A stretch of DNA of 63,728 nucleotides, from the NCBI GenBank assembly GCA_030264375.1, contig JASCQW010000081.1, forward strand, positions 73,866,029-73,929,756, written 5' to 3'. This stretch comes from Carcharhinus longimanus. Taxonomy: Eukaryota. Each line of letters opens with the position of its first letter. Position 1 is the first letter of the stretch. The notes below the pieces were generated by a model. That model saw nothing but the letters and a program-made list of their open reading frames with translations. It did not search any database and was not told where the DNA came from. Positions 17,773 to 57,397 of this stretch are shown here, piece by piece. The position numbers and the translations under genes are program-made.

Positions 17773-17958
17773 GTAAATGCACTAAGACGACAGGAAAGAA
17801 TGATTAAGAACCGTGAATCAGCATGCTTGTCCCGGAGGAAGAAGAAGGAATATTTGCTGAATCTTGAGCACAGGCTGAAATCTGCACTAGTTGAAAATGC
17901 GAAGCTGAAGAATGAAAATGGTTCTCTTCAAAAGCAGCTCCAAGAGCTGATGTCAGAG
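17773..17958 (+). CDS. ATF6: ATF6 exon encoding the bZIP domain (equivalent to human exon 8)
   Basis: AG at 17771-17772, GTAAGT at 17959; 186 nt, phase 0/0. Translates [62 protein letters not shown], matching the ATF6 basic region ([17 protein letters not shown]) and leucine zipper. Confidence 0.95.
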
Positions 17959-25699: not shown

Positions 25700-27210
25700 G
25701 ATGAAGGGAAATTTGGCAGTACTATGAATTTTGAGGAGCATATTGATAGATGTGAGTACAGCATTGCAGAATCAGCATGGCTTCATGAAGGGGAAATCAT
25801 GCCTGACAAACTTATTATCATTCTTTGAGATGGTAACGAACGAGCAGGATTGACAAAGGGAGACCAGTGTGTGTAATATACTTGGATTTCAAAATTTTTT
25901 CAAAAGTTAGCACAGCAAGGTTGCTTAATAAGAGCCCATTGTGTTGGAGGTAGTATATTAGAATAGAAAGAGAATTGGCGATCGAGAGAGAGTTTAAGAG
26001 GAGCATTTTCAGAATGGCAACCTATAATTAGTGGAGCGCCTCAAGGATCAGTGCTGGGGGCACAGTTAGTTACAACATATTAATGACATGGACGAGGGAA
26101 GTGAATGTACTATTGTCAAGTTTGCAGATGACACAAAAATAGATGGAAAGAGTGGTGACGGTGATACAAGGAGTCTACAGAGGGATATAGACAGATTAAA
26201 TGAATGGGCAAAAATTTGGCAGATGGAATATGATGCAGGAAAATATGAAGTTGTGCATTTTGGTGGAAGGAGTAAACGTGCTGAATGTTACTTAAATTGA
26301 GAAAGACTACAGAAAGCTCCAGCAACGTGGGATTTGGGAGTCGCTGTGCATAAATCACAAAAAGCTAGCATGCAATAGGGAAGTCAATGAATAGCCTTTA
26401 GTTCAAAGGCAATGGAGTTTAGAAATCTGCAAGTGTTCCTAAAACTATACAAGGCAGCTAGACCTCATCTGGAATATTGTGAACAGTTTTGGTCCCCTCA
26501 TCTAAGGAAAGGTATACTGATAATGGAGGTTGTCCAGAGAAGGTTCACTTGGTTGATCCTTGATACGGAGGGATTTTCTTGAGAGGAGCGGTTGTGCAAG
26601 TTGGGCCTCTACTCTTTGGAGCTCAAAAGCATGAGGGGTGACCTCATTGAAACGTGTAGGATTCTCAGGAGGCTTGACGGCGCTGAGTGTTTTGATTTGA
26701 TTTATTATTGTCACATGTATTAGTCTACAGTGAAAAGTATTGTGCTTTGCATGCTAAACAGACAAAGCATATTGTACATAGGGAAGGAATGGTGTGAGTG
26801 CAGTGTTACAGTCATAGCTGGGGTCAGAGAAAGATCAACTTAATGCAAGGTGGGTCCGTTCAAAAGTATGATGGCAGCAGGGAAGAAGGGCGTTTCCCTT
26901 TGTGGGAGAGACCAGGACCAGAGGGTATAATCTCAGAGTAAAATGTTGCCCCTTACGACAGAGATGAGGAGGAATTGCTTCTCTCGGTAGTAAATCTTCG
27001 GAATTCTTTCCTGCAGAGGACTGTGGAGGCTGGGTTGTCATGTTCAAGGCTGAGGTAGACAGATTTTCAGTCAGTAAGGAAATCAGGGGTTATGGGGAGA
27101 AGGTGGGAAAGTGGAGTTGAGGCATATCAGATTAGTCAAGATTTCATTCAGTGGTGGAGCAGACTTGATAAGCTGAATGGCCGACTTCTGCTGCTACATC
27201 GTATGGTCAT
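25700..27210 (+). mobile_element. CR1 LINE fragment interrupted by an antisense Rex-Babar 3' end (~26690-26888)
   Basis: QHGFMKGKSCLTNL, KFADDTKIDG and RPHLEYCEQFWSP. CR1 sequence resumes at ~26890 (TTTCCCTTTGTGGGAGAGACCAGGACCAGAGG). Confidence 0.85.
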
Positions 27211-47649: not shown

Positions 47650-48168
47650 GTACCTATTATAGGATATTATTGAACTAGAAAGAGTGCAGTCAAGATTTAC
47701 TTGGATGCTACCAGGACTTGCAGCTTTGAGTTATAAGGAGAGGCTGGATAGATTGGGACTCTTTTCTCTGGAGCATAGAAGGCTGAGGGGTGATCTTATA
47801 GAGGTCAATAAAATAATGAGGGACGTAGATCAGCTTGATCGTCAATATCTTTTCCCAAAGGTAGGGGAGTCTAAAACGAGAGGGCATAGGTTTAAGGTGA
47901 GAGGAAAGAGATACCAAAGTGTCCAGTGGAACAATTTTTTCACACACAGGGTGGTGAGTGTCTGGAACAAGCTGCCAGAGTTAGGAGTAGAGGCGGGTAC
48001 AATTTTATCTTTTAAAAAGCATTTAGGCAGTTACATGGGTAACTTGGGTATAGAGGGATATGGGCCAAATGCGGGCAATTGGAACTAGCTTAGGGGTTTA
48101 AAAAAAAAGGGCAGCATGGACAAATTAGGCCGAAGGACCTGTTTCCATGCTGTAAGCCTCTGACTTTA
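47650..48168 (+). mobile_element. CR1 3' fragment with little decay
   Basis: ORF 47684-48088 SYKERLDRLGLFSLEHRRLRGDLIEV...FFTHRVVSVWNKLP; highly similar to 29100-29600. Confidence 0.9.
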
Positions 48169-48169
48169 T

Positions 48170-50870
48170 GACCTGCATACTAACGTTTTGTGATTCATAT
48201 GTTCGGACAGCCAGATCTCTCTGCACCTCAGAGCTCTGCAATATCTATCATTCAGGTAATCAGCTTCATTTTTACTTTTCCTGCCAAAATGGGCAATTTC
48301 ACTTTTACCTACATTACACTAGATTTACCAGATCTTTACCATTTGCTTAACCCATTTATATCCCTTCATAGCCTCCTTATATCCTGCACATATCTTAGTT
48401 TCCTACTTAGCTTTTTGAATCAAGGAATCCTGCAATATATTGAATTAAACCAATACATCAACTATCTCACTTCCTTCTGCTTTCAAGGCCCAAGAATGAA
48501 GTCTGTCAGGACGTGGGGATTTGCCTGCCACCTGTTCCAACAATTTGTGAAGTACCACTTCCCTGATGATTGTAGTTTTCCTGAGTACTTTCCACCCTTC
48601 TGTTTCCTTATTTACAACAATTTCTGAGATGTTACTTGTGATCTGTATAATGGAGACTGATACAAAATATCTGTTCACTGTCTCCTTACTCTGTATTACT
48701 AACTCCCAATTCTCACTTTCTTTAGGACCAACGCTCACTTCTTTAAATTTCCTTTCTAAAATATTTATAGAAACTGTTACAATCTGACTTTCTACTTCTT
48801 GCTAGCTTTCTTTTATGCTCTAATATTTCCATCCTTATTAATCTTTTAGTCATTCTTTTTTTCTAATATTCTGCCCAGTCTTCTGACCTGCCAGGCATAT
48901 TTGTGTAATTATATGCTTTTTCTTCAAGTTTGATATATTTTTCAACTTTTTTTAGATCACCACGGATGTGGGGTTCACACCTTAGAATTGTTCTTTCTCA
49001 TTGGAATGTGTCTATTGTGTATTGTCTGAAATATTCCCTTAACTGTCTGCCATTGTATCTCTTGATCTATCTCTTAACCTAATTTGCCAGCTCACTTTAG
49101 CTAGCTTGACTTTCATACCCTCATAATTACCCTTATTTAAACTTAAAATACTAATCATGGACCCACTCTTTTCTTCCTCAAACTGAATATAACTTTCAAT
49201 CATGTTAGGATTGCTGCTATAAAGTAACACCTTCATTGAGGTAATTCATTAATTCTATCTCATTGCATAATAGCAGATCTAGGGTAGCTTGCTCTTTGCT
49301 TGGTGCCAGAACATGTTGTTCTAAGAAATTGTTGCAAAAACACTGTGAATTCCTCATCTCAGCTATCTTTGTCCATCTGGTATTTCAAATCTATATTTAG
49401 ATTAAAATGTTTCAAATCTATATTTAGATTAAAATCTTCCATGATCATTGCTGTATCTTACTTAAAAGCTCTTTTATACTCTGTCTTGCTATATAGTTAC
49501 AATTTGGTGGGTGGCCTGCATACCACTCCCTTAAGTGACTTATTGTCTTTGTAACTTGAGCTCCACCCAAACTGATTCTGCATCCTAATTTCCTCAGCTT
49601 CAGTTATTCCTTTCTATTCTGCTTGTACTATCAGGAATTAACACAATGACCCCTCCACATTTTCCTCACTTCCAGTCCTTCTTAAATGCCCTGTACTGCT
49701 CAATATTGAGAACCCAATCTATGTCATCCTACAGCCATGCCTCAGTTAAGGCTGTCAGATCATTGTTATTTATTTCTTCGAGTTCTCAATTCCTCTGCTT
49801 TTGTTTCAAATGCTGCCTGCGTACAGAAACTGGACTTAGATTTTGCCCTCTTTGTTATTTTTGTAACCTCTAGTCTTACCTGCTGATTACTCTTGGTTTT
49901 CTACTCTCTTTCTCTTCCTTTTATTGTCTGTTTCTTACTTCCCCTACTAATTCCTTGCTGTCCTGCCTTGTCTCTACTCTTTGATTTGTCACATCTTCCC
50001 ACATTTAATTCCTTTCTCCACTATTTAATTTAAAACCCAATCTACTATCCTAGATATACAGCTCACTGGAACATTGATCCAAGCATGGTTCACATATAGA
50101 CCATCTCAGCAGAATGGTCTCTATTTTCTCTGGGACAGGTATAGGTGACCTGTGAACCAGAACACTAGGCTTTGAGCCATGCATTTATCTTGCTAATCTT
50201 ATTTGCCTTATGCTAGCTAGCTAATAGTCCAGAGATTATTACCTTGAAGTTCTGTGTTTTAATTTAGTGCCGAGCTCCTCATGTTGTCTACGTAGAATTT
50301 CTTTCCTAGTCTTTGGCATTGGTACATGAATGAATCATGATCATTGGATGCTCCCCTTCTCACTGCAAGTTCCTCTTCATCTGTGCACAGATATCCCGAA
50401 CCCTGGCACTAGGCACACAATACAGCCGTGTGGACTCTGCTCTTGATTGCAAATAACAGTATGCGACTGTGCTGTCTCCTAACACTACCATGTTCCTCTT
50501 CACTCCTCCAACTTGAATGGCATCCTTCACCATGGTGCTATGGTCAGTCTGCTCATCCACCTGTAGTCCTTCTCCTGATGTACACACATTGCAGTAACTT
50601 CAAAGCTATTGGGCAAATTCGGTGGCTGAAGCTGCTCCATCACTTCATGATGGTTCCTTTACCTGCCTGACCTGCAGTCACACATCCTGCTGTTCACGAC
50701 CAGCGACCAGTTCTGCCTGACCTAAGGGGAGTGATTACCTGCTGCTTCAAAGATCACTTGGAACTGAAGTTGCCTAAACTGCACTTTCTGCAGAAATGGT
50801 TATCCGAGATTGTACTGCATTCCACAGACTCCTCTGTAGTGCCATCACATCACACCACCAAACCTGCCAT
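48170..50870 (-). mobile_element. Old CR1 fragments including an ORF1 esterase-like region
   Basis: GKSPRPDRLHSWALK and LNKGNYEGMKVKLAKVSW (ORF2). NMVVLGDSTV...CVPSARVRDI matches the GDS motif of the CR1 ORF1 SGNH esterase. Confidence 0.7.
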
Positions 50871-50907
50871 TTTTGTCCAACCGTATTTAGTTAATTAGTC
50901 AACTAAT

Positions 50908-51084
50908 GGGTGTATATGGTAATATCTTTGGGGGAACATGTTGTGTCCTTTTCAGGACGGTTTGTCCATCCTTTGTCCCCACCTGGCACTCAGCTCTCAC
51001 CTGTGGTTCCCCATAGCTGTTTGCATGCGACAGCGGCCACACCCTGGGCAACGGCCTCGAGAAGCTGGCTAAACCAGGTGAGGG
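50908..51084 (+). ncRNA. Putative HDV-like self-cleaving ribozyme at the RTE 5' end
   Basis: Manual fold: P1 GGGTGT (50908-50913)/ACACCC(T) (51039-51045); P2 CTCTCACCTG (50994-51003)/CAGGTGAGGG (51075-51084); P3 GGT (51005-51007)/GCC (51036-51038); L3 begins TCC and ends G; P1.1 CC (51009-51010)/GG (51046-51047); GCAA linker; P4 CGGC (51052-51055)/GCTG (51064-51067); J4/2 GCTAA with C51069. Confidence 0.7.
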
Positions 51085-52538
51085 TAGCTGACGGGTCTCA
51101 ACCCTCAGTGGGATAGGGAATTGTCTATCCTAGCATGTGAAGACAGAGTCTGGTGGATTGAGCGGACAGGTCCAATGGTCAAGAAGGTAGTCTCTGCAAG
51201 CGTCGTGGAACACGAAGAGCAGGACAAGACACAGAAGACGTCCTGGTCATCCACTGAGCGTAGCCCCACCTCCAGCTGTCTTGACTCTTGTCTTGCCACT
51301 GGATATAGATGGGAATTGGGAAGAGAGAGTGAGGCTGACACTGCGCAACTCTTCCTCACTTTAATCTGAATCAAGCGCTAGTTTCAACACCATCATCATC
51401 AGTGTCCTGTTCAACCCTTGAAGTCCTGTGACGATGGGCAAGTGACGAAGCAGCAGGCATGGATACACTGGGAGCTGTAGTCACAGACCTGCACGGGCAA
51501 TCGGCAAGTATGCAACAACCACCAAGGAATCTCGCTGCTCTCCATCAGAGGAAAAGCCCTCGCAAGAGTCCTGGTCACTCATCCGGAGCTGGGCCTGCTT
51601 CCAGAATCACAGTGTGGCTTCCCCAAAGGTTGTGGGACTACTGGCATGATTTTTGCTGCGCGCCAACTTCAAAAGAAGTGTCAGGAGCAGAATCGCAAGC
51701 TCTACACAACCTTTGTTGATCTAGCAAAAGTCTTCGACACTGTAAACCGATAAGGCCTCTGGAGGATCATGTCAAAGTTCGGCTGCCCCCCAAGTACATT
51801 CAGATGGTACGCCAGTTCCATGATGGTATGATGGCCAGACTACTGAATGGCGGAGAATCCTCTGAGGCATTCCCAGTCACCAGTGGCGTCACACAGGGCT
51901 GTGCGCTCGCACCCACACTGTTCAGCATGATGTTTACTGCCATGCTGAATGATGCCTTCCAGTACAGTGTTGCTGGAATCGACCTCAAATACAGAGTAGA
52001 TGGGAAGCTCTTCAACCTGAGGAGACTTCAAACTATTATCAAAGTGAAAGAGACTGTTCTGAGAGATTTCCTCTTTGCCGATGACTGCGCCCTGTACGCT
52101 GACTCAGATCCAGAGATGCAAGTCAGTATGGACAAATTTTCCACGGCTTGTGACAACTTTGGACTCAGCATCAACATTAAAAAGACCGAAGTCATGTACC
52201 AGCCTGTTCCTCATGCACCGTACACAGAACCCATAATCACAATCAAAGGGCAGAAACTGCAGGCAGTGGACCAGTTCACTTATCTTGGCAGCACCCTCTC
52301 CCAAGCAGTGACTATTGATACAGAAGTTAACTGCAGNNNNNNNNNNNNNNNNNNNNNNNNNNNNNNNNNNNNNNNNNNNNNNNNNNNNNNNNNNNNNNNN
52401 NNNNNNNNNNNNNNNNNNNNNNNNNNNNNNNNNNNNCCCAAATTGGCCTGATCAGTCATCTTCGGACACACTGCAACCAGCCTCAAAATGACTAATGGTG
52501 TCGAGGTCCTCATTGATGATGATGGACGAACAACAACA
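50908..52538 (+). mobile_element. RTE-clade LINE, 5' UTR retained, endonuclease deleted, with TSD
   Basis: RT motifs GISLLSI-GK-LARVL, QCGF, FVDLAKVFDTVNR, VRQFHDGM, GVTQGCALAPTLF, FLFADDCAL and FTYLGSTLS; (CAA)n tail. Flanked by AGTCAACTA(A/G)T at 50897-50907 and 52539-52549. Confidence 0.9.
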
Positions 52539-55500
52539 AGTCAACTAGTGAATAATTTACACAGGTTAAGTGATAGAAAGTTGCACTGTGCAACCACTGG
52601 AGGCTGAAACAAGGAGGGTCTTCCTGCTTCCATTTTTACTGCAAGCCAAATGGTGGCTTCCTGTGTGTTAACTATTCCATGATTTTATGACCCTTCAATG
52701 TGAAGAAGCTTAATGTTGCCACGATATTGTATTAATCCACAAAGAAAATAATGATTGAATTAAGTTTAATTTTAACATAATGTTTAGTTCACGCACTGTA
52801 AAATAAAGCACGCTGATAATTTAGTGTCTGGACTTGTCTTGGCAAGTGTTCAGATTTTTCTTTACCATAACAGAGAAGGGAACTACAAAAGATGAGATAT
52901 AAATATAAAATGCAGATTGCAAGGGAACACTACTGAAACACTCATACCGTTAATTATTGAGGAGACGGGCGTTTCTTTAAATGCCAGATACTTGTACTAT
53001 TTGCAGATGGAACTCGCACTGCTGTAGATATGAAATATCCACTTGAAGACCCAACAAGGTGGGGGGAGAATAGACAGTAAGGTGAGGTAAAACCACAAAG
53101 CACAAATATGAAGTTTAATCCAGTAATAGATTCGCGTCTTGAATGACTAGTATTAAAAAGTTTTATTTTGACCAGGAAGATATTAACAGTGCTCTGGGTC
53201 TTAGAGAATTAAACTGAAATTGGTTTTCAGCCTATCTACAGATGAATCAAATCCAGGAATGCTTGAGAATTGAGGGAATTTTGAGGGACATGGGGGATGA
53301 ATAGGTAGATGCACTTGACATGTGCAAGTGATGACAAAAGTAATAAGTTTCTAATTATGAGTTCAATTAACAAACTCAATGAACTTCAACTGACAAACTC
53401 AGTATCCAGTTTTGGGCAAGCTCATAGAAGTAGCTATTGTGCATCCAAGTTACCAAGAGGACTTAATGAATCAAATGAGAAATTAAACTGGAGTCATATG
53501 GGTTATGCCGGGTGCAAAGCCAAACCAACTTGGGTTTTTACATCAGCCTTGCAGTTTCCATGTGCTAGCCCACAATTTACCAGATTCATTGAATTCCGTT
53601 TCATAGCTTGCTCTGGTGGGTTTGAATTTGTAACCTCTGCATTGCCATTTTGTCCTGTAACAGCAAACTTTGGCGCATGCCTATCAAAAATAAAATTGGA
53701 GAGAACCTTTTGAGTGAGCATTAAAACAGCTTTTGAGAGGGTTTATTTCACTTGAACAACCTCATAGGTGTATGTGGAGGTGACATGCCAAATTCATAGG
53801 GAAATGATATGACTGCAAAAGTGGTCACAGTTGCGTTCTTTCTGAATGTGAACAGATGATTGGCTAGGTTGCACCTGAGTGTTTTGTGACATTCTGATAT
53901 CCATGAGATAAATGGTCTACCCAGACCCAGTAGACAAATCAGGTTCAAACACATGGTTGGAGGGATGAGCTGCAAGAAATGACTTCAAAAATTGAAGTTC
54001 CTAAGTTTTGAAACTTTCAGCAATTAGTGTAGAGAACAAGATCCTTTGCGCTGCAATGGTGGACCAGAAGCTTCGGGCTCAAGTCCAACGCCAGGACTTG
54101 TCTGTCACAGAAGAAGCATTCAGAATCTGGTTCAACAGGCTGATAATGAGCTTGGGAATCCTTTCACCACTTGTTCCACTGGTCCCCAAAGGGAAAAAGT
54201 GTGTGTGTGAAGATAGACTTAAAAAAAGACTGGATTGTTGTTTACAGGAAAAGTGTTAGACATGTCATCAAGTGGAAACNNNNNNNNNNNNNNNNNNNNN
54301 NNNNNNNNNNNNNNNNNNNNNNNNNNNNNNNNNNNNNNNNNNNNNNNNNNNNNNNNNNNNNNNNNNNNNNNNNNNNNNNNNNNNNNNNNNNNNNNNNNNN
54401 NNNNNNNNNNNNNNNNNNNNNNNNNNNNNNNNNNNNNNNNNNNNNNNNNNNNNNNNNNNNNNNNNNNNNNNNNNNNNNNNNNNNNNNNNNNNNNNNNNNN
54501 NNNNNNNNNNNNNNAAACATTTCACTAATATCTATGATTCCGAATTCCATACCCAGCTCAGGTATAATATTTAATACAGATTTCTCTTACATGTTCAGCA
54601 AATAACCCAACATGTTGAGGGTTCTCATGACAAGAGTAGATCATACTGTTTGCTCAGGATAATTTTTAATTGGTAATTAAATTGTCTTGGCATTGGATAA
54701 TACATTAATTGTCCCATCCTCAAACATTGGTCATGTGTATTTTGCATTTGTTTTCTCAGCTTTAAATCATAAAAAACTTGATGATCCAACAGCTCAGTAA
54801 CTGGAATTACATTTTATTTTGGCATTGTATCTGTTTGCTGAGTGACAGTTCAGAGAATGAAAACTTTGTGAACACGGTTACATTGTGCTTTCTTTGAGTT
54901 AATGAGAATTTTCTTATTTGGGGAGAATCAGGAAGATTTGTGTGACGTGGTGATGTTCATTTAACCCATCAATGGAATTTCAAACTGTTGGCTGAAGCCA
55001 ATCATTGTTGACACGATTTGAGGTTATTGTGTCCCTTCTAATGAAGTGATTGTTGAAGCCATGAGAAAATAGTTAAGTTGTTTCACATTTTGACAAATTT
55101 ATCCTTTTGGATACAGCTTTGGCTCAGAGTCTTTCAGTAATGTTTATCCCAAAATACGTTAATGGTTTGCAGACGGCATTTCTTTATAGTCAAATCTCTA
55201 TTGCAGGATGATAGTGCACAAAGATATGAAGATGCTTTGTATTGTGTCAATAATGTGCTGCACCACTGACTAATTCATTGTCACTAAGTGACAAATTAAA
55301 TGGTACCTGTACAGTAGTAATATGTGTTGCTCAACTGCTGTCTGACCTTTTGACTCTTGACCTTAATTTTCTTTTCTTCTATTGCCTCCAGACTTTTGGC
55401 AAATGCAGTGGAATCAGTTCTGGATGAGTTGATTAATTCAGTCACGATACTTTAGCCAGGGTTTCATTGGCTGTTGCAGCACAGCCAACTGATGCATTTG

Positions 55501-57397
55501 TTACCGAGGCACAGCAAATGCAAAAAACAAGTTTAGTTGGCATAAATTGTGCAATTCAAATGCTGAAACATTATTCCAGAATAGTGTTTTAGTGTTACCA
55601 TAATATTAGGACTGGATATTTTGATGCAGTTCTGTGCAGACAGACCAAACCCTTTACTTTCATTTCCTCACATCAGGTGTATAAAAAAATGATCCTAAAA
55701 CTCCAGCTGAAGGACATGCACTTTCTGTTGACTGCTGGTGATGGAATTCCCTCTTATTCAAAATGAGTTTGAAAGGAATAAAGAGATAAATGTATATTTT
55801 GGCATCTGCTTGAATTTGAGGACACCTTAATGGAGATATTGTACGACTTCATTAGAAATTTATTTTTAACACTTGGCGTCTGATAATCTATGCCAAGGGG
55901 GGTAGTGTGAATCAGGAAATTTCCTGGTTTGTGGATCTATCTTGTGGAAAACATGCCTCATCTTATCCCATTTTCACTCTGGTCAATAAGCAGGGCGGTG
56001 CGAGGGCACAGACATACAAGTGCAAGATGGAATCGGCCCCATTGCCCCCAGCTGCACATCAGAGGTGATTATAGGAGGTACTGAGTTTGCAAGATCCACC
56101 TTAGACCCAGGTGCTTTGTGAAGTAACCTTGACCCCATCACTGCGTGGATCCTTCCAGCCCAGTGCAATCTTAATGCCAAGCCATGTCCCCCTCCATCCT
56201 CATGCCACTCTTCTTCTCTCTCCCCCCCACCCCACACACCTCCACCCACCCATTAGTGTATTTGCTAACAAATTTGAATCTATACTGCTCACGCAGCACC
56301 CTTTTCCTTGCATCCTCCATGACAACTCGCTCAGTATCTGGCAAGGGTAAACCAGGTTTAATTGCACTGCAAGGGAACTTTTTAGACAGGTTAGAGGCAG
56401 ATGGCAGGGAGGAATACTTTGAATTTCAGTGTGTAACAAATATGAGGTTTATTGTTATGTTGAAATAAAGCAGAGATCCAAGTATCTGTTGCAACCTTTG
56501 TTGTCATAAAAACAAAATCATTCATAAAGAAGCTCTTCAGGTGTTTAATCCCTTCAGAAACATAGGGGCTTATATTCATAGCCCCACAGCAAATCCTTCA
56601 ATAACCAATTTGAACTGTCAATCAAAATTTGATGGTTGGATACTTACAGGTTTTGGAAAGCAGCCAGGCATAAATAATAATGTTATGATAGCCTTTTTAG
56701 GTAATATCATCAAACACTTACTGTGTTTGATGATATAACCTGCTAAAACAGATTACTCTCAACTCCTGCAACTCCACAAATCTTGCTTTTAAACTACATG
56801 AAGCAACTTGCCAAGTGGGTAGCCTCGCTTTGGCTTAATGCATTGATTTCATAGGGTTTATTTAAATAGCAGCGTATTGTTGGTTTTATAAACAAAATAA
56901 CCTTTATTGTATCAAGCTTCATATTACGTTCAGAGGAAGCTTTGCAAATTGGCACTTGCAACTGCAAGAATTAAGTCAGAAGATGTTGGTCTTGCCTTGG
57001 CCATGGTAGAAATCTGAATTTTGCTGCAGAATTTGTTGAACTTTGGATTTTAGTTCCAAGTATTGTGTATGCAAGGGAAACAACCTGGGCAGGGATGATG
57101 GGGAGGACAGGTCCCTTTGGAGACAATGGTTATTGTCTTAACTTGACATGTCAAGATGTTTAAACTCTAGGCATAGTTTGGATTTGACTTCAATGGTGGA
57201 GGAATCAGAAAATGCAGCATTTCAATCAGTAACTTTTGCTGTTGAGGTGTGTCAGTCATGACCTCTATGTTCACCCAAAAGTGTGTTTATCATCTTTTGT
57301 TCCTTTCAACCAGTTGTTATGAATGTAGATGTGGAGACATTAGTCTTTTTTGCCTTGAGCCAAGGCTTTTCTAAATTTCACAATCTGCTTCTTTCAG

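Follow-up and report, generated by a model that had tools for sequence, protein, structure and literature searches.

RTE, R4, L1Tc and some R2 elements carry HDV-like ribozymes that cut at their 5' junction (PMC3774820), and ribozymes at the 5' ends of RTE elements, as well as bipartite derivatives of RTE, are already known (PMC6765202, PMC5786205). In R2, P1 strands occur in tandem, and a shift to the upstream copy is seen; P1 measures 6-7 bp and mismatches are present at its top (PMC3774820). Fungal HDV variants that break the published descriptor were shown to cleave (PMC5640933), and an intronic ribozyme in CPEB3 offers a precedent for a role in the host (bioRxiv 10.1101/2023.06.07.543953; PMC4836649).

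HDV-like ribozymes at RTE 5' ends are a known class, and the copy described here, in an intron of shark ATF6-alpha, is an ordinary relic. From modelled structures and the 5' ends of related copies, we consider it likely that 50908-51084 belongs to a multicopy RTE-type LINE, as its decayed 5' end, and that the family sequence folds like an HDV-type ribozyme, which would cut the RNA just before the first base of the element.

An RTE-type LINE copy in an intron of ATF6-alpha

The window is the whole stretch of DNA that was analysed, 63,728 nt from the genome of Carcharhinus longimanus. Five ATF6-alpha exons were mapped on its + strand (17773, 20243, 32820, 57390 and 59885), and the bZIP exon (17773-17958) matched elasmobranch ATF6-alpha proteins at 79-100% (18 matches). 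These exons flank the intron that contains the element, which confirms the sense orientation within ATF6 proposed in the first-pass annotation. The intron and the parts of the element are:

32963-57397, + strand: ATF6-alpha intron, GT..AG, 24.4 kb; the element sits 6.5 kb before the 3' splice site
50897-50907, + strand: 5' copy of the target-site duplication, host DNA; 10 of 11 positions match 52539-52549, and T50907, with which it ends, lies at -1 relative to the element
50908-52538, + strand: copy of an RTE-type LINE, frameshifted and with an internal deletion; about 1.6 kb including an assembly gap
51085-51494, + strand: retained remainder of the 5' UTR; the endonuclease region that comes next in long copies is missing here
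51495-52336, + strand: frameshifted reverse-transcriptase fragment (Pfam RVT_1, E 4e-14)
52437-52538, + strand: 3' end with a short (ACA)n tail, after a gap of 100 N
52539-52549, + strand: 3' copy of the target-site duplication, matching 50897-50907 over 11 bp with one mismatch

The 5' strand of P1 had been placed at the boundary defined by the target-site duplication. That strand does mark the element's 5' end, but the 11-bp duplication (50897-50907/52539-52549) sets the start at G50908 and assigns T50907 to host DNA. About 590 nt of 5' UTR are kept before the sequence jumps to the reverse-transcriptase fragment. Pfam found an AP endonuclease (PF03372) and a reverse transcriptase (PF00078) in copies of the family, whose target-site duplications are 7-15 bp long and whose tail is (ACA)n. 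The protein relatives number at least 120 and include turtle, ray, frog and invertebrate sequences. In most of them one ORF of 1050-1130 aa holds both domains, and identity is 82-83% in another shark and 70-78% in turtles. Several relatives bear the name 'craniofacial development protein 2', after a gene that carries an RTE-derived endonuclease. On its anatomy the family is classed as an RTE-type LINE, and the ATF6-intron copy is a dead, internally deleted member.

As in the bipartite elements RTE-N and Bov-A (PMC5786205), the 5' and 3' ends are kept and the middle is lost, and several shark copies of 450-680 bp with duplications show the same arrangement; unlike RTE-N and Bov-A, the ATF6-intron copy keeps a broken reverse-transcriptase fragment. 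The short copies L069, L071, L131, L042, L055 and L168 consist of 5' UTR and 3' tail between duplications and possibly represent bipartite non-autonomous subfamilies. An 836-bp contig of a bacterial genome record (L099) is 76% identical to an RTE reverse transcriptase and is likely animal DNA contamination. Elsewhere in the ATF6 intron, the segment 53009-53060 looks like an exon (pyrimidine run, AG, open frame, possible GT); a comparison with two ATF6 proteins gave no match to it.

The HDV-type fold

The element's 5' end can be arranged in an HDV-type fold as follows:

50908-50915, + strand: terminal P1 5' strand in the family register (family positions 1-8, by alignment to the family majority sequence), with C4>T and G7>A here
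50916-50993, + strand: J1/2 domain, 78 nt here and about 95 nt in the family, with an extra 3-nt deletion behind 50928
50917-50919, + strand: site of a 15-nt deletion, in which the internal look-alike of P1 was lost together with the 5' arm of the basal J1/2 stem
50994-51003, + strand: P2 5' strand, followed by U51004
51005-51007, + strand: P3 5' strand; C>T at the third base makes the pair U.G in this copy
51008-51035, + strand: expanded L3 of 28 nt, with U-C-C (P1.1 5' strand 51009-51010), a 5-bp hairpin (51016-51020/51030-51034) and then G51035
51036-51038, + strand: P3 3' strand
51039-51045, + strand: P1 3' strand, whose final C has become T by CpG decay
51046-51051, + strand: P1.1 3' strand GG (51046-51047) and J1.1/4 GCAA
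51052-51067, + strand: P4 hairpin
51068-51074, + strand: J4/2 GCUAA with the predicted catalytic C51069, placed by analogy with HDV
51075-51084, + strand: P2 3' strand, 10 bp with 50994-51003

P1, the 10-bp P2, P3, P1.1, P4 and J4/2 were all found where they had first been annotated, and the five helices follow the nested double-pseudoknot order that defines an HDV-like fold. As in known HDV-like ribozymes, P1, P1.1, P2, P3 and P4 are nested, J4/2 reads GCUAA with a C in the catalytic place, the P1 strand occupies the first bases of the element, and J1/2 is long and structured. The J4/2 C was found in 124 of 128 family copies, as was the A that follows it (124/128), and both are present in a distant relative, L089, described below. 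By analogy with HDV, C51069 is predicted to be the catalytic cytosine.

The loop L3 departs from this pattern. The annotated U-C-C...G is present, with UCC at 51008 and G at the end, but the loop is 28 nt long and holds a 5-bp hairpin, which is also found in L089. The L3 of known HDV-like ribozymes measures 7-8 nt. The shark family also differs in that its P1 is bulged or begins with a wobble and in that a perfect look-alike of the P1 5' strand lies 10 nt downstream. A purine-pyrimidine pair at the cleavage site belongs to the HDV-like consensus (PMC5640933). L089 has a 6-7-bp P1 with such a pair, and the two shark subfamilies have one with a bulge or an A.C pair. In the ATF6-intron copy, six pairs join 50908-50913 with 51039-51044 and U50907 lies opposite U51045, so that P1 is a slipped 6-bp helix with a U.U below it, or has no seventh pair. 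The fungal variants likewise break the descriptor and have an extra base between P2 and P3, which may correspond to U51004 here; they are altered in P4 and the first pair, whereas the shark variant is altered by the L3 hairpin (PMC5640933). A search of the literature returned no report of a shark RTE ribozyme or of an L3-expanded HDV-like ribozyme, a result that falls short of establishing absence from print.

To gauge chance occurrence we used a relaxed HDV descriptor of our own design, written after the 50908-51084 case had been seen. It gave 1657 matches with a P2 of at least 7 bp in 225 Mb of shuffled window sequence and 103 with a P2 of at least 10 bp, or about 0.06 per window on two strands. 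In the real window it matched twice, at the ribozyme site (P2 11) and, weakly, at 26585. A chance match would also have to fall within one base of the element boundary. The match at 26585 (window 26332-26625) is at chance level and lies inside an unrelated LINE-like repeat, and it was rejected as a ribozyme. An Rfam scan of 48000-56000 with E up to 10 yielded no HDV-type family, the four matches (E 1-7) being unrelated. The simple fold of the stretch, which cannot represent a pseudoknot, was as stable as those of shuffled sequences (z 0.06). An extension of P3 by 6 bp (-8.5 kcal/mol) competes with P1 and P2 and dominates simple folds. The family is predicted to work like an HDV-type ribozyme, one that fails the short-L3 and Rfam tests.

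5' ends of family copies and the choice of P1 strand

A search of the genome gave 732 first-look candidates, 40 of which were scored (85-90% identity). The family majority sequence starts with GGGCGTGT, followed by AT and then by GGGGTGT, which lies at family position 11 and is complementary to the P1 3' strand at every base. The earlier suggestion that the family consensus begins with GGGGTGT did not hold up. A pattern anchored at position 14, and thus unbiased as to the start, gave 183 matches, and among the first 30 of these 27 ran through positions 6-10, extending about 10 nt further 5', while one started at the internal G-run and two further in. Copies picked by similarity started at positions 1-5 in 59 of 70 cases and at position 11 in one. 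Two subfamilies could be told apart, with 104 exact matches for a start that contains C and 48 for a start without it; the base before the pattern was G in 23/30 of the former and A in 23/30 of the latter. Seventeen distinct copies had a target-site duplication called by their 5' end (three 7-bp calls among them are weak; L124, mis-called, and L077, with a 6-bp call, were excluded). Ten of these start at position 1 ± 1, two at positions 4-5 and none at position 11; three have second-subfamily starts and two carry extra letters. L219 and L242 have identical 15 bases upstream of the element start and may be a segmental duplicate or a 5'-extended subfamily, and a variant start is common to L219, L242 and L247.

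The family has two possible P1 5' strands in tandem, the terminal one and the internal GGGGUGU. Were the cut made before the internal strand, at position 11, the full-length copies would derive from uncut RNAs begun at an internal promoter at position 1. We regard this as unlikely. In its favour, the internal strand forms the most stable duplex (-11.9 kcal/mol, compared with -8.0 for the terminal strand with a bulged C and -4.7 with a C.C mismatch), copies L006 and L226 do start at the internal G-run, and L1Tc has promoter and ribozyme in one 5' stretch (PMC3383444). The distant relative L089 argues otherwise. This metagenome contig, 63% identical in the endonuclease protein and with a like ribozyme core, was the only one among 10 metagenome loci to have this type of ribozyme; searches of viral and prokaryote collections gave no ribozyme relatives, only two chance pattern matches. 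One base of the P1 3' strand is changed in L089. Its terminal strand pairs 7/7, the altered pair being changed on both sides, whereas the internal segment cannot pair (terminal -9.5, internal -3.1 kcal/mol).

The folding predictions point the same way. In the shark family majority sequence the internal strand is predicted to take part in the basal J1/2 stem of 10 bp (pair probability 0.95-1.0), and the cost of freeing it (median 9.0 kcal/mol) exceeds that of the terminal strand (median 4.5 kcal/mol) in 44 of 45 copies; a strand locked in this way would rarely be used as P1. The stem is kept only partly in L089. The true P1 5' strand is thus likely the terminal one, modelled as a bulged GGG(C)GUGU or, in the second subfamily, as AGGGUGU. 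It appears to comprise the terminal 7-8 nt, its exact first base being uncertain by one. From the terminal pairing in L089, the predicted locking of the internal strand and the precedent of R2, we infer a cut before position 1, give or take one base. In R2, too, there are two tandem candidates and the upstream one sets the 5' end; the duplicate strand of R2 comes from the 28S target and its inner strand is mutated (PMC3774820), whereas both shark strands are encoded by the element and the inner one is perfect and predicted to be held in a stem. The family would provide a clean case in which the 5' ends of the copies reveal which of two P1 strands gets used.

The base before the element was T in 28 of 40 major-subfamily copies, compared with 142 of 400 positions in the flank (p 1.6e-5). 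If cleavage took place at the internal strand, this T might be a first base encoded by the element. Of the 10 copies starting at position 1 ± 1, 7 have the -1 T in both copies of the duplication, and it is therefore target DNA. A nicking preference, or an untemplated A that primes synthesis, may account for the bias. For the genomic HDV ribozyme, U is the best -1 base, with cleavage more than 25-fold better than after G (PMC1874588), and together with the T bias this preference suggests that new copies tend to be born in the best context for release. Such a strong bias would link integration to later self-release.

Does the fold still cleave?

Covariation had been proposed as a test of P1-P4, and among genomic copies it proved uninformative. 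Copies decay after insertion, and of the 19 both-sided P4 changes that still pair among the 128 copies, 15 are CpG decay; covariation among copies was set aside as a test of the fold. An analysis of four sequences, in which a single sequence (L089) supplied the distant material, found one both-sided change in P1, which is not above shuffled alignments (355/500 reach one).

The fold might descend from an HDV-like ribozyme that has lost cleavage and now binds an element protein or aids the start of translation, the 5' ends being made by a promoter. The 28-nt L3, the bulged or mismatched P1 and the competing extended P3 would all fit such a role, and non-catalytic roles have been proposed for HDV-like folds (PMC6765202). 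Against it, L089, although about 20% divergent, has the equivalents of U20-C21-C22, GG, GCAA and GCUAA unchanged, and the pairing of P1 tracks the exact 5' end in three variants. We find this account improbable, and predict from the modelled structure that RNA of the family cleaves itself.

Damage and decay of the ATF6-intron copy

The alignment of the ATF6-intron copy to the family begins at position 1 with G50908 and shows C4>T, G7>A and deletions of 15 nt (behind family position 10-12) and 3 nt. The copy had been suspected of being one base short, G1 being missing; its first base is family position 1, the preceding T50907 belongs to the host, and what has been lost is 15 nt, along with the two substitutions. 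Alternative alignments of the 5' end, to the internal strand minus one G or to the start of the minor subfamily, need more changes and fit an orthologous contig from another organism less well, and they were rejected. That contig (a single one, at depth 11) spans the same flank with 8 other differences over 252 letters. It reads G at 50914 and retains the three bases, so damage kept accruing as judged from this one contig. A contig from a further sequencing run is identical to the window across 280 letters.

In the ATF6-intron copy the native register of P1 is worth -0.1 to -2.8 kcal/mol, and the slipped 6-bp helix (50908-50913/51039-51044) -10.4 kcal/mol. Trapping of the P1 5' strand by the freed J1/2 arm amounted to 6.4 kcal/mol without host flank and 1.9 with it, and was dropped as an argument for attenuation because of this dependence on the flank. 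The loss of the native register makes the copy a likely slow or attenuated ribozyme, according to the folding model. The earlier proposal of attenuation thus stands in part: the native register is nearly gone, but no missing G is responsible, and a 6-bp P1 with U at -1 could still cut after U50907. Stems of 6 bp occur in R2 ribozymes (PMC3774820).

Like the CPEB3 ribozyme (PMC4836649; bioRxiv 10.1101/2023.06.07.543953), the ATF6-intron copy has an HDV-type fold, in sense orientation, in an intron. It could then be asked whether it still cuts ATF6 pre-mRNA fast enough and is kept to tune ATF6 output, as the CPEB3 ribozyme does. Its core is intact, it lies 6.5 kb before the next exon, and a 6-bp P1 with -1 U is possible. 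The same six core checks are passed by 64 of 128 family copies, and the core has not diverged less than the rest: in 42-57 copies picked by pattern, non-CpG divergence was 4.4% in the core and 4.6-5.3% elsewhere, and in the ATF6-intron copy non-CpG differences numbered 2/76 in the core and 10/292 in the rest, a comparison of low power. A figure of 4.1% versus 7.9% for core and rest was discarded, as its copies had been picked by core. Locus-specific conservation above neutral, the mark of domestication in CPEB3, was not detected at this low power. The G7>A change and the 3-nt loss, absent from the orthologous contig (depth 11), and the nearly lost native register also speak against retention. 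The copy decays at the neutral rate, one worn copy among hundreds, and with 64/128 copies equally intact a role in ATF6 control, or any special link to that gene, is unsupported; that it still cuts ATF6 pre-mRNA fast enough and has been retained for it is very improbable. The CPEB3 ribozyme, by comparison, is single-copy and conserved across mammals (PMC4836649; bioRxiv 10.1101/2023.06.07.543953).

A model for release of the element RNA

In the account that we favour, cleavage at the terminal strand, the ribozyme would cut the element RNA out of host transcripts just before the first base of the element. P1 would form with the terminal strand, with a bulged C in the major subfamily and an A.C first pair in the minor one, while the internal GGGGUGU would be held in the 10-bp J1/2 stem, formed before the P1 3' strand is transcribed. 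The L3 hairpin would bulge out between the P1.1 bases and the equivalent of G25, leaving the active site unblocked. Reverse transcription of the cleaved RNA would give copies that start at P1. The ATF6-intron copy, once inserted, lost 15 and 3 nt and took two changes in the P1 strand, which would leave the slipped 6-bp helix as its best P1.

A wider proposal is put forward tentatively, and we hold it to be possible rather than probable: an animal RTE lineage may use an undescribed HDV variant, with a hairpin in L3 and a decoy P1 silenced by the J1/2 stem, and insertion would leave a U at -1, so that full-length copies are born self-releasing. If so, shark pre-mRNAs would contain live cleavage sites at hundreds of such copies. 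The family would also be a natural test of how much change in L3 and P1 is tolerated (a 28-nt L3, a bulged P1), a variation that the Rfam models of today do not catch.

The C. longimanus genome also has another RTE-like family, an older one (L100-L108, 9 exact matches). An 18-nt motif, which resembles the J4/2-P2 junction of the HDV antigenomic ribozyme, is common to it and to the metagenome RTEs L091 (1930-2020) and L094 (1900-2000). RTE-like ORF remains follow the motif in 4/9 of these genome loci. Just upstream of the motif lies a hairpin, CUCCC-AGCU(A/G)U..A(U/C)AGC, similar to the main family's L3 hairpin but with a G-C to A-U swap. It may act as a common handle for a binding protein, and it also resembles a 23-bp RTE-like piece kept in Ceph-SINEs (PMC5786205).
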